Both the position numbers and the translations under genes were made by a program. The notes under the pieces were generated by a model. The model worked only from the letters and a program-made list of their open reading frames with translations. It ran no database searches and was not told the DNA's origin. Shown here piece after piece: positions 6,670 to 15,005 of a DNA stretch of 15,005 nt (its first letter is position 1; each line of letters opens with the position of its first letter). The stretch is taken from the UHGV virus genome UHGV-2053560, one strand, 5' to 3'. Origin of the DNA: a virus.

Positions 6670-7104
6670 TTATTCTTGTTCTCTGGTCAAATTATATAGT
6701 TGGAAAACAAGGATGCATATATGAATGAACGATGCAGAGGCAATGCCGATGGCGATAGTGGGTATCATGTAGCCGCTTATGCTGGAAAGAAGCAATAACC
6801 CGCAGAAAAACAAAGCTCCAAGCTCAACAAAACTAAGGGCATAGACAATAACTACCGATGTCATATACCCATACTCTCTAATCTTGGCCAGTCGGCGCGT
6901 TCTGCTTCCGATTAGAAACGTCAAGGCAGCAATCAGGATTGCAATCATGGTTCCTGCATATGATGACAATGTCGCCCCAAGACCATCTCTATGAGCTGAA
7001 AAAGAAACACCAGGAATGTAGTGGCGGAAAAGGAGATAGCAAATGCTTACGATAACGTAAGGAATTATTACTATGTAAACACCAGGCATGATTCTGTTCC
7101 GCAT
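6670..7104 (-). CDS. rexB: RexB, membrane component of the Rex abortive-infection/exclusion system
   Basis: 144 aa, multiple hydrophobic helices, directly downstream of rexA in the cI transcript. Size, position and sequence agree with lambda RexB as I recall it. Confidence 0.9.
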   Translation of the reverse strand: MRNRIMPGVYIVIIPYVIVSICYLLFRHYIPGVSFSAHRDGLGATLSSYAGTMIAILIAALTFLIGSRTRRLAKIREYGYMTSVVIVYALSFVELGALFFCGLLLLSSISGYMIPTIAIGIASASFIHICILVFQLYNLTREQE

Positions 7105-7119
7105 AATTACTCCTGATAA

Positions 7120-7959
7120 TTAATCCTTAACTTTGCCCACCTGCCTTTTAAAACATTCCAGTATATCACTTTTCATTCTTGCGTAGCAATATGCCATCTC
7201 TTCAGCTATCTCAGCATTGGTGACCTTGTTCAGAGGCGCTGAGAGATGGCCTTTTTCTGATAGATAATGTTCTGTTAAAATATCTCCGGCCTCATCTTTT
7301 GCCCGCAGGCTAATGTCTGAAAATTGAGGTGACGGGTTAAAAATAATATCCTTGGCAACCTTTTTTATATCCCTTTTAAATTTTGGCTTAATGACTATAT
7401 CCAATGAGTCAAAAAGCTCCCCTTCAATATCTGTTGCCCCTAAGACCTTTAATATATCGCCAAATACAGGTAGCTTGGCTTCTACCTTCACCGTTGTTCG
7501 GCCGATGAAATGCATATGCATAACATCGTCTTTGGTGGTTCCCCTCATCAGTGGCTCTATCTGAACGCGCTCTCCACTGCTTAATGACATTCCTTTCCCG
7601 ATTAAAAAATCTGTCAGATCGGATGTGGTCGGCCCGAAAACAGTTCTGGCAAAACCAATGGTGTCGCCTTCAACAAACAAAAAAGATGGGAATCCCAATG
7701 ATTCGTCATCTGCGAGGCTGTTCTTAATATCTTCAACTGAAGCTTTAGAGCGATTTATCTTCTGAACCAGACTCTTGTCATTTGTTTTGGTAAAGAGAAA
7801 AGTTTTTCCATCGATTTTATGAATATACAAATAATTGGAGCCAACCTGCAGGTGATGATTATCAGCCAGCAGAGAATTAAGGAAAACAGACAGGTTTATT
7901 GAGCGCTTATCTTTCCCTTTATTTTTGCTGCGGTAAGTCGCATAAAAACCATTCTTCAT
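7120..7959 (-). CDS. rexA: RexA, sensor/activator component of the Rex exclusion system
   Basis: 279 aa, immediately downstream of cI on the same strand. Size, position and N-terminus (MKNGFYATYRSKNKGKDKRS) agree with lambda RexA as I recall it. Confidence 0.9.
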   Translation of the reverse strand: MKNGFYATYRSKNKGKDKRSINLSVFLNSLLADNHHLQVGSNYLYIHKIDGKTFLFTKTNDKSLVQKINRSKASVEDIKNSLADDESLGFPSFLFVEGDTIGFARTVFGPTTSDLTDFLIGKGMSLSSGERVQIEPLMRGTTKDDVMHMHFIGRTTVKVEAKLPVFGDILKVLGATDIEGELFDSLDIVIKPKFKRDIKKVAKDIIFNPSPQFSDISLRAKDEAGDILTEHYLSEKGHLSAPLNKVTNAEIAEEMAYCYARMKSDILECFKRQVGKVKD

Positions 7960-8071
7960 AATTCAATCCATTTACTATGTTATGTTCTGAGGGGAGTGAA
8001 AATTCCCCTAATTCGATGAAGATTCTTGCTCAATTGTTATCAGCTATGCGCCGACCAGAACACCTTGCCGA

Positions 8072-8788
<717 letters not shown>

Positions 8789-12146: not shown

Positions 12147-12593
12147 ATGAAGCAAATATACATGCTTCGCAACGAAGCAATCAGAAACAACGCCATAGAC
12201 GCAATACTCTCACTTCCGATCGACGACAAGTCACCTCACGAAGTCCACATTAAAGAACCAAAGCGGAGCAATCCTCAAAACCGCCTTATGTGGGCGTTAT
12301 TGCAGGACGTATCGCGTCAGGTGCTTTGGCATGGAGAGAGACTTGCGCCGGAGGACTGGAAAGATCTGTTCACTGCCCTGTGGCTTAAGACCAAAAAAAT
12401 GGAGCAAAGAAGTGCGCCTGGTATCGACGGTGGCGTTGTCATGCTTGGCGTGCGTACCAGCAAAATGCGAAAGGCCAACATGACTGAGCTTATCGAAATC
12501 ATGTTCTGGTTCGGCTCAGAGCGCAACGTGCGATGGAGTGATGACTCCCGGAGAGAGTATGAATGGTCACAACGAAAAGGGAAGGCTGCATGA
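12147..12593 (+). CDS. ninB: NinB (Orf-family recombination mediator)
   Basis: Product from ATG 12147 aligns by eye to lambda NinB (NPQNRLMWALLQDVSRQVLWHGERL vs DQNRKLWACLGDVSRQVEWHGRWL; C-terminal RWSD...EW). Confidence 0.85.
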   Translation: MKQIYMLRNEAIRNNAIDAILSLPIDDKSPHEVHIKEPKRSNPQNRLMWALLQDVSRQVLWHGERLAPEDWKDLFTALWLKTKKMEQRSAPGIDGGVVMLGVRTSKMRKANMTELIEIMFWFGSERNVRWSDDSRREYEWSQRKGKAA

Positions 12594-13296: not shown

Positions 13297-13463
13297 TTGA
13301 CCAAAATCGAAGTTACGAACAAGAAAGCGTCGAGCGAGCTTTAACGTGCGCTAACTGCGGTCAGAAGCTGCATGTGCTGGAAGTTCACGTATGTGAGCAC
13401 TGCTGCGCAGAACTGATGAGCGATCCGAATAGCTCAATGTACGAGGAAGAAGACGATGAGTGA
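13293..13463 (+). CDS. ninF: NinF
   Basis: From GTG 13293 (GTGA overlap with the ninE stop): [48 protein letters not shown], a Cys-rich NinF-like sequence. The ORF track begins at an upstream ATG (13251). Confidence 0.7.
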
Positions 13464-13725
13464 TTTCTCTGAGCTTATTTCCTTCAAAAAAGACAGAGAA
13501 GAAATGCGGACTGAATCTGTCTATTACGTTCAACACCGGAATAAACGCTCTGTGCTTGATCAGGAGCTGGTTATTACCGGAGACCTGGCATTCAGAACAT
13601 ATAAGGCCAGCATGGAAATGAAGGATTTCCCTAAATGTGGTTCTGAAAGAGAAGCCGCGTTAAAGCTGGCAGAGTGGATGCAGAGAATGGCTGCTGCAAT
13701 TGAGAATTACTGGAGCGAACCATAA
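13456..13725 (+). CDS. Hypothetical protein (89 aa) between ninF and ninG
   Basis: ATG overlaps the ninF stop; its stop overlaps the ninG ATG (TAATG). Not present at this position in lambda as I recall it. Confidence 0.5.
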
Positions 13726-14336
13726 TGGCTAAACCAGCGCGAAGACGATGTAAAAACGATGAATGCCGGGAATGGTTTCACCCTGCATTCGCTAATCAGT
13801 GGTGGTGCTCTCCAGAGTGTGGAACCAAGATAGCACTCGAACGACGAAGCAAAGAACGCGAAAAAGCGGAAAAAGCAGCAGAGAAGAAACGACGACGAGA
13901 GGAGCAGAAACAGAAAGATAAACTTAAGATTCGAAAACTCGCCTTAAAGCCCCGCAGTTACTGGATTAAACAAGCCCAACAAGCCGTAAACGCCTTCATC
14001 AGAGAAAGAGACCGCGACTTACCATGTATCTCGTGCGGAACGCTCACGTCTGCTCAGTGGGATGCCGGACATTACCGGACAACTGCTGCGGCACCTCAAC
14101 TCCGATTTGATGAACGCAATATTCACAAGCAATGCGTGGTGTGCAACCAGCATAAAAGCGGAAATCTCGTTCCGTATCGCGTCGAACTGATTAATCGCAT
14201 CGGGCAGGAAGCAGTAGACGAAATCGAATCAAACCATAACCGCCATCGCTGGACTGTCGAAGAGTGCAAGGCGATCAAGGCAGAGTACCAACAGAAACTC
14301 AAAGACCTGCGAAATAGCAGAAGTGAGGCCGCATGA
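13725..14336 (+). CDS. ninG: NinG (Rap-like recombination endonuclease)
   Basis: 203 aa, [41 protein letters not shown]..., Cys-rich N-terminus and conserved C-terminal region, recognised as NinG. Confidence 0.9.
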
Positions 14337-14539
14337 CGTTCTCAGTAAAAACCATTCCAGACATGCTCGTTGAAGCATACGGAAACCAGACAGAAGTAGC
14401 ACGCAGACTGAAATGTAGTCGCGGTACGGTCAGAAAATACGTTGATGATAAAGACGGGAAAATGCACGCCATCGTCAACGACGTTCTCATGGTTCATCGC
14501 GGATGGAGTGAAAGAGATGCGCTATTACGAAAGAATTGA
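14333..14539 (+). CDS. ninH: NinH
   Basis: 68 aa, [37 protein letters not shown]..., HTH-like, recognised as NinH. Confidence 0.85.
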
Positions 14540-14943
14540 TGGCAGCAAATACCGAAATATTTGGGTAGTTGGCGATCTGCACGGATGCTACACGAACCTG
14601 ATGAAAAAACTGGAGACGATAGGATTCGACACCAAAAAAGACCTGCTTATCTCGGTTGGCGATTTGGTCGATCGCGGTACAGAGAACGTCGAATGCCTGG
14701 AATTAATCACATTCCCCTGGTTCAGAGCTGTACGTGGAAACCATGAGCAAATGATGATTGATGGCTTATCAGAGCGTGGAAACGTCAATCACTGGCTGCT
14801 TAATGGCGGTGGCTGGTTCTTTAATCTCGATTACGACAAAGAAATTCTGGCTAAAGCTCTTGCCCATAAAGCAGATGAACTTCCGTTAATCATCGAACTG
14901 GTGAGCAAAGATAAAAAATATGTCATCTGCCACGCCGATTATC
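14517..14943 (+). pseudogene. Ser/Thr protein phosphatase (lambda PPase/NinI homolog), truncated by an IS insertion
   Basis: ATG at 14517; calcineurin-like metallophosphatase motifs GDLHGC, GDLVDRG, GNHE present. After codon ~142 (..YVICHADY) the sequence switches to an IS-type inverted repeat instead of the rest of the gene. Not in the ORF track because it runs off the window end. Confidence 0.7.
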
Positions 14944-15005
14944 TGAACCGCCCCGGGTTTCCTGGAGAGTGTTTTATCTGTGAACTCAGGCTGCCAGATC
15001 ATCGT
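14944..15005. mobile_element. Terminal inverted repeat of an IS3-family insertion sequence (IS629/IS1203-like), partial
   Basis: From 14944 the sequence reads TGAACCGCCCCGGGTTTCCTGGAGAGTGTTTTATCTGTGAACTC..., which I recall as an IS629-type terminal IR (IS3-family ends start with TGA). Identification is from memory only. Confidence 0.55.

Follow-up and report, generated by a model that had tools for sequence, protein, structure and literature searches.

The window, by which we mean the whole analysed stretch of 15,005 nucleotides from the UHGV virus genome UHGV-2053560, keeps int (1-1194), recombination genes, rexA, a cI-like repressor, O, a DnaB-type helicase and nin genes. The ATG of a 397-aa tyrosine integrase (Arm-DNA-bind_3 and Phage_integrase domains) stands at base 1, on the plus strand and convergent with the leftward early operon. 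The interval 1-2421 is without counterpart in the best-matching E. coli prophages, whose similarity begins at about position 2422. A RexA homologue occupies 7120-7959 on the minus strand (Pfam RexA, E 1e-97), accompanied by a likely RexB ORF at 6670-7104 and adjoined by a cI-like S24 repressor at 8072-8785. Judged by these homologies, 6670-8785 appears to form a lambda-type Rex abortive-infection module in an apparently defective prophage. The nin region also includes an 89-aa ORF (13456-13725) for which Pfam records no family. Its exact protein is listed for 13,391 blocks of the collection; at the ten places that were read it comes after NinF, with NinG or YbcO next. The right-hand end of the window, where a fragment of the phosphatase gene ninI adjoins the end of an insertion sequence (IS), is detailed in table 1.

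Table 1. Features at the right-hand end of the window (L002 and L003 are two public contigs that carry the same ninI-IS joint)
Feature	Coordinates	Strand	Remarks
ninH, intact	14333..14539	+	From the ORF list; last complete gene before the break, overlaps the ninI start
ninI 5' fragment, lambda-type Ser/Thr phosphatase (Metallophos)	14517..14943	+	Codons 1-142 plus one base
ATC directly left of the IS	14941..14943		Same 3 bp after the far IS end in L002 and L003
Terminal 62 bp of an IS629/IS1203 (IS3 family) copy, cut by the window end	14944..15005	-	62/62 identity
Right inverted repeat (IRR), 25 bp, TGAACCGCCCCGGGTTTCCTGGAGA	14944..14968	-	Pairs 22/25 with the other end, TGAACCGCCCCGGAAATCCTGGAGA, in L002
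Last six codons of orfB, through the stop (...DDLAA, stop)	14986..15005	-	Stop 14986-14988

The ninI frame is open from its ATG at 14517, and the translation ends ...KYVICHADY before the break. Over its whole length the fragment aligns with residues 1-142 of the lambda enzyme of 221 aa (PDB 1G5B; E 3e-94), from which it differs by five substitutions (137/142 identical), and it matches Pfam Metallophos (PF00149; E 2e-15) over profile positions 2-101 of 191. It shares with the lambda Ser/Thr phosphatase (Nin221/NinI) the three N-terminal metallophosphoesterase motifs, namely GDLHG at residues 19-23, GDLVDRG at 48-54 and GNHE at 74-77, but it lacks residues 143-221 and hence the complete catalytic domain of about 221 aa. 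Compared as DNA, window 14300-15005 matches the ninG-ninH-phosphatase regions of more than 400 complete E. coli genomes with 99.5-99.8% identity and, among phage records, lambda, HK phages, Sf6 and Stx phages. The match to intact ninI ends every time at query base 644, which is window position 14943, one base past codon 142 (Tyr). Beyond this point an intact allele (L006) goes on as ...GCCGATTATCCTTGTGACGAATATGAG (also ...GATTATCCTTGTGACGAA), and the window reads ...GCCGATTATC directly followed by TGAACCGCCCCGGGTTTCC. The exact NinH protein adjoins intact 221-223-aa phosphatase genes and Q in many genomes; in intact relatives the invariable neighbours after ninH are a phosphatase gene of that size, Q, holin and lysis genes. 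Having lost its 79 C-terminal residues, among them the metal ligand that is His186 in 1G5B, the ninI product as predicted from its sequence should be inactive.

From 14944 on the window reads TGAACCGCCCCGGGTTTCCTGGAGAG... Over all 62 positions these terminal bases are identical to IS1203/IS629 ends. The search, which covered 28 Gb, gave 24,612 such places (E 1e-23, far beyond chance) spread over 4,066 of the 5,426 complete E. coli genomes, and each place carries the annotation IS3-like element IS1203 family transposase. In E. coli O157:H7 PV15-279 (L001) the element measures about 1.3 kb and the 62 bases adjoin the 3' end of the transposase CDS; thus, the window enters the IS through its right inverted repeat, with the transposase genes on the minus strand. 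The reverse complement near the window end, GAT GAT CTG GCA GCC TGA, agrees with this placement, being the OrfB C-terminus ...IGNDDLAA of L002 and the CDS end of L001. The complete copy of 1,310 bp in L002 begins with exactly the 62 bp seen in the window, and the window and L002 together give imperfect terminal inverted repeats of about 25 bp that begin with 5'-TG and pair at 22 of 25 positions. The element itself is without differences from IS629/IS1203 of Shigella sonnei and E. coli, of which the window holds the last 62 bp only. The identity and orientation of the IS end and the position of the break are thereby established. A sequence-only reading of the window had recognised an IS629/IS1203-type (IS3 family) inverted repeat after about 142 intact phosphatase codons and had called the gene a pseudogene. 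The identity to IS1203 ends, the correspondence to residues 1-142 of 1G5B with the end of DNA similarity at 14943, and the missing residues 143-221 bear out these three points. The span it had given for the IS, 14517-15005, is mostly gene fragment, and the part from 14944 on is correctly assigned.

We searched for the joint as an exact 47-mer spanning the ninI-IS break. It is present in two public contigs, L002 (IMG/VR, 5,244 bp) and L003 (ENA metagenome, 11,234 bp), and was not found in complete E. coli RefSeq genomes, phage records, plasmids or GTDB species representatives. L003 shows 1 SNP relative to the window over 2,606 aligned bp, and L002 is identical to the window from about 12590 to the end, with a different NinB allele upstream. 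The occurrence of the joint in both contigs with this pattern of similarity suggests inheritance within a lineage rather than a single accident of assembly. The window breaks off 62 bp inside a multicopy repeat, as short-read contigs typically do, and this would be expected if the window were a contig ending at a repeat and its ninI-IS joint a mis-join. Such an artefact is hardly credible, however, when the window, L002 and L003, which were obtained separately and differ in their upstream background, all show the identical joint. The boundary near 12590 is itself a sharp mosaic one, the upstream part of L002 (1-190) carrying the different NinB allele and the downstream part being identical to the window, and thus indicates that the nin region recombined after the IS joint had formed.

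In both contigs the IS is complete at 1,310 bp (2554-3863 in L002), with orfA and orfB intact and the second inverted repeat present. In that copy orfA encodes 108 aa with an HTH_Tnp_1 domain and orfB 296 aa with HTH_21 and rve domains, the two overlapping at the A-run GGAAAAAATG. The two-ORF organisation of the IS3 family is therefore seen in L002 and L003, the window itself contributing the six orfB codons of table 1. In its length, its 25-bp imperfect inverted repeats starting with TG, the HTH_Tnp_1 and rve domains of its two ORFs and their overlap at an A-run, the copy has the likeness of IS629/IS1203; that of L002 is identical at 1,276 of 1,310 positions (97.4%) to an IS1203 copy in the chromosome of E. 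coli WP7-S17-ESBL-04 (L014). The ninI frame runs into the element in L002 and L003, giving a fused ORF of 142 phosphatase residues and 53 IS-encoded residues. This ORF forms a singleton cluster among about 15 billion proteins, its one member lying on L003, which suggests that the event is rare and lineage-specific.

With the window reaching 62 bp into the IS, the downstream structure was read from L002 and L003, and we infer that the window's own genome is built in the same way. After the left inverted repeat both contigs continue with ATCCATGCTTCCAGTTGC..., which is not ninI sequence. This far flank is the 5' part of the istA gene of ISEc12 (IS21 family), on the minus strand and broken internally; intact ISEc12 reads GGAGATCCATGCTTCC at the break point. 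Past the IS come the truncated ISEc12 (ISEc12') up to its terminus, an internal fragment of IS1 insB (IS1') and the contig end, and in neither contig was any sequence like ninI codons 143-221, Q, holin or lysis genes found after the IS. The gene does not resume directly after the element, as it would after a simple insertion. Both contigs are metagenome assemblies that cross repeats and stop inside IS1, so that a mis-join shared by the two is possible. The sequence-only reading had placed the IS between the nin region and the Q and lysis genes, which is probably wrong in view of the ISEc12' and IS1' flank. It had proposed to look downstream for the transposase genes and a second inverted repeat, which are both there in L002 and L003, and for the rest of the phosphatase gene, which does not resume. 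Its suggestion of a partly decayed or rearranged prophage gains support at this point from the ninI truncation and from the same far flank.

The bases next to the element bear on how the joint arose. In L002 and L003 the order is GATTATC, then the IS, then ATCCATGC, so that ATC stands on both sides and may be either a target-site duplication, for which (at 3-4 bp) the earlier reading had proposed to search, or a microhomology. The two flanks are nevertheless different sequences, and ATC is native both to ninI and to intact ISEc12 (GGAGATCCATGC). With the right-hand ATC native to ISEc12, the match is no proof of a single insertion event, and a 3-bp flank would match by chance once in 64 cases. 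The ATC on both sides speaks against a rearrangement in so far as one insertion into a joint that already existed would produce it as well. On this account an older deletion at an ATCC microhomology, a motif that both ninI (TTATCCTT) and ISEc12 (AGATCCAT) have at the break, fused ninI' to ISEc12' in the IS-free joint GATTATCCATGCTTCC, into which IS629 then inserted with duplication of ATC; the arrangement in the contigs would be a perfect 3-bp duplication of this kind. We regard such a course as very improbable. It needs an insertion at precisely that joint, the chance of a matching triplet is the one just given, and the junction of the IS with ATCCATGC and ISEc12' is also found in the chromosome of WP7-S17-ESBL-04, next to an unrelated left flank. 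There the other IS flank is a truncated yeeA (…GGTAG followed by TGAACC), without duplication. The same ISEc12' joint with a different left flank implies that this IS copy swapped the flank at its right inverted repeat at least once.

Two loci illustrate the company that the element keeps. In WP7-S17-ESBL-04 (L014, 2791-5387) IS1203 adjoins ISEc12' with yeeA' opposite, an IS110-family pseudogene lies beyond the ISEc12 end, and the region forms an IS pile-up adjoining sbmC-yeeA. In a plasmid of E. coli strain 222 (L016, 4250-4262) IS1203 has entered an ISEc12 that is otherwise intact, at a point close to its end and about 40 bp ahead of the terminal sequence that L002 shows; this is another association of ISEc12 and IS1203, at a different site. 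We also considered whether the IS629-ISEc12' joint is a widespread module and rejected the idea, as the joint is contiguous in just 1 of 5,426 genomes.

In this context, we put forward that the ninI joint is very probably the end-point of an IS-mediated rearrangement, in which IS629 in ninI was joined to ISEc12' and the prophage was truncated. An IS629/IS1203 element, 1,310 bp long in the two contigs, lies inverse to the rightward nin operon of a lambdoid prophage and breaks ninI after codon 142. A programmed -1 frameshift would join its orfA and orfB into one transposase, whose catalytic domain is of the DDE (rve) type, and in the lineage carrying the joint the IS is complete and, with its intact reading frames, apparently functional. 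In that lineage, as read from L002 and L003, the left-IR end is joined to an internal break of ISEc12 istA, followed by the IS1 fragment, and not to the remainder of ninI. Two routes may be envisaged, namely homologous recombination of two IS629 copies, one in ninI (ninI::IS629) and one in ISEc12 (ISEc12::IS629), or an IS-adjacent deletion assisted by the ATC microhomology. By either route the 3' part of ninI, together with the Q antiterminator and the late genes, would have been lost or moved elsewhere, which would leave a defective prophage from int to ninH.

The reciprocal joints are defined as the left part of ISEc12 next to the right inverted repeat (CCGGAGATCTGAACCGCCCC) and as the left inverted repeat (TTCCGGGGCGGTTCA) next to the 3' part of ninI (CTTGTGACGAATATGAG within 10 bp). 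For the former, the 5,426 E. coli genomes yielded only nearby, non-identical IS3 insertions and no instance of the joint itself; for the latter they yielded only insertions at other sites, and IMG/VR none. Their absence from these collections, which leaves the parents of a recombination undocumented, would fit a deletion. A more specific proposal takes the shared ATC to be neither a chance match nor a duplication but a scar, left when an IS-adjacent deletion guided by microhomology, of the IEE PrimPol type as in O157, fused the nin region to an IS island in a lineage other than the well-studied EHEC strains. We offer this tentatively, as we consider it unlikely; if true, the IEE-type deletion route would be a natural example of a prophage domestication mechanism.

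The window ends before its own downstream side, which leaves room for a simple insertion in its genome: an IS with a 3-4-bp duplication after which ninI resumes, followed by Q and the late genes, L002 and L003 being another derivative or mis-assembled. The same gene offers an example of exactly this. Our contrast control, the Stx2c prophage of E. coli strain 7784 (NZ_CP018247.1, L027), has its phosphatase gene interrupted by IS1203 with a clean CTT duplication; beyond the element the gene continues, and Q, tRNAs and stx2c come next. An O111:H8 strain likewise has IS1203 in ninH. The strain 7784 insertion is in the same IS orientation as that of the window, its site lying 82 bp upstream, but where it is clean and the gene resumes, the joint of the window type has ISEc12' and IS1' as far flank in L002 and L003. 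Both contigs with the exact joint are without the ninI remainder, and one of them, L003, is 1 SNP from the window over 2.6 kb. The joint of the left inverted repeat with the 3' part of ninI at this site is in none of the 5,426 E. coli genomes, nor in IMG/VR, and the singleton status of the fused ORF also speaks against a simple insertion. The joint in the window is thus probably not one, and we hold this explanation to be improbable. Insertions of IS1203 recur in the ninH-ninI interval of Stx-type prophages (L027, 905-2889; L028, 1156-2675), all in one orientation with the transposase antisense to the nin operon.

The rearrangement that we favour for the ninI joint belongs to a kind of event that is already known. 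Deletions and rearrangements associated with IS629 in E. coli O157 prophages were reportedly described by Ooka in 2009 and, with regard to IEE, by Kusumoto in 2011, and are also the subject of Rump 2011 (PMC3271280). IS629/IS1203 counts among the commonest IS of EHEC and Shigella. Both its preference for prophages and the part that it plays in deletions have been well described (PMC3271280); IS629 excision and deletions mediated by IEE have been reviewed (bioRxiv 10.1101/2023.06.07.543989), and insertions of IS629 as well as IS-adjacent deletions in prophages are documented (PMC3271280; bioRxiv 10.1101/2023.06.07.543989). As in the O157 events (PMC3271280), one flank is kept here and unrelated DNA stands on the other, with a possible microhomology and at a prophage site; unlike in those events, neither an iee gene nor an O157 background was seen.

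The case is one of ordinary prophage decay and no departure from the established picture of IS629; it opens no new biological question and matters mainly for annotation. It carries the lesson that a matching 3-bp flank is insufficient for calling a simple insertion when the flanks come from different sequences. In annotation, ninI should here be entered as a pseudogene and the last 62 bp as a minus-strand end of IS629/IS1203; the prophage is best regarded as defective, probably without Q and the late genes downstream. If the genome of the window continues as L002 and L003 do, the prophage would have neither a late-gene activator nor late genes downstream and would thus be a defective remnant.
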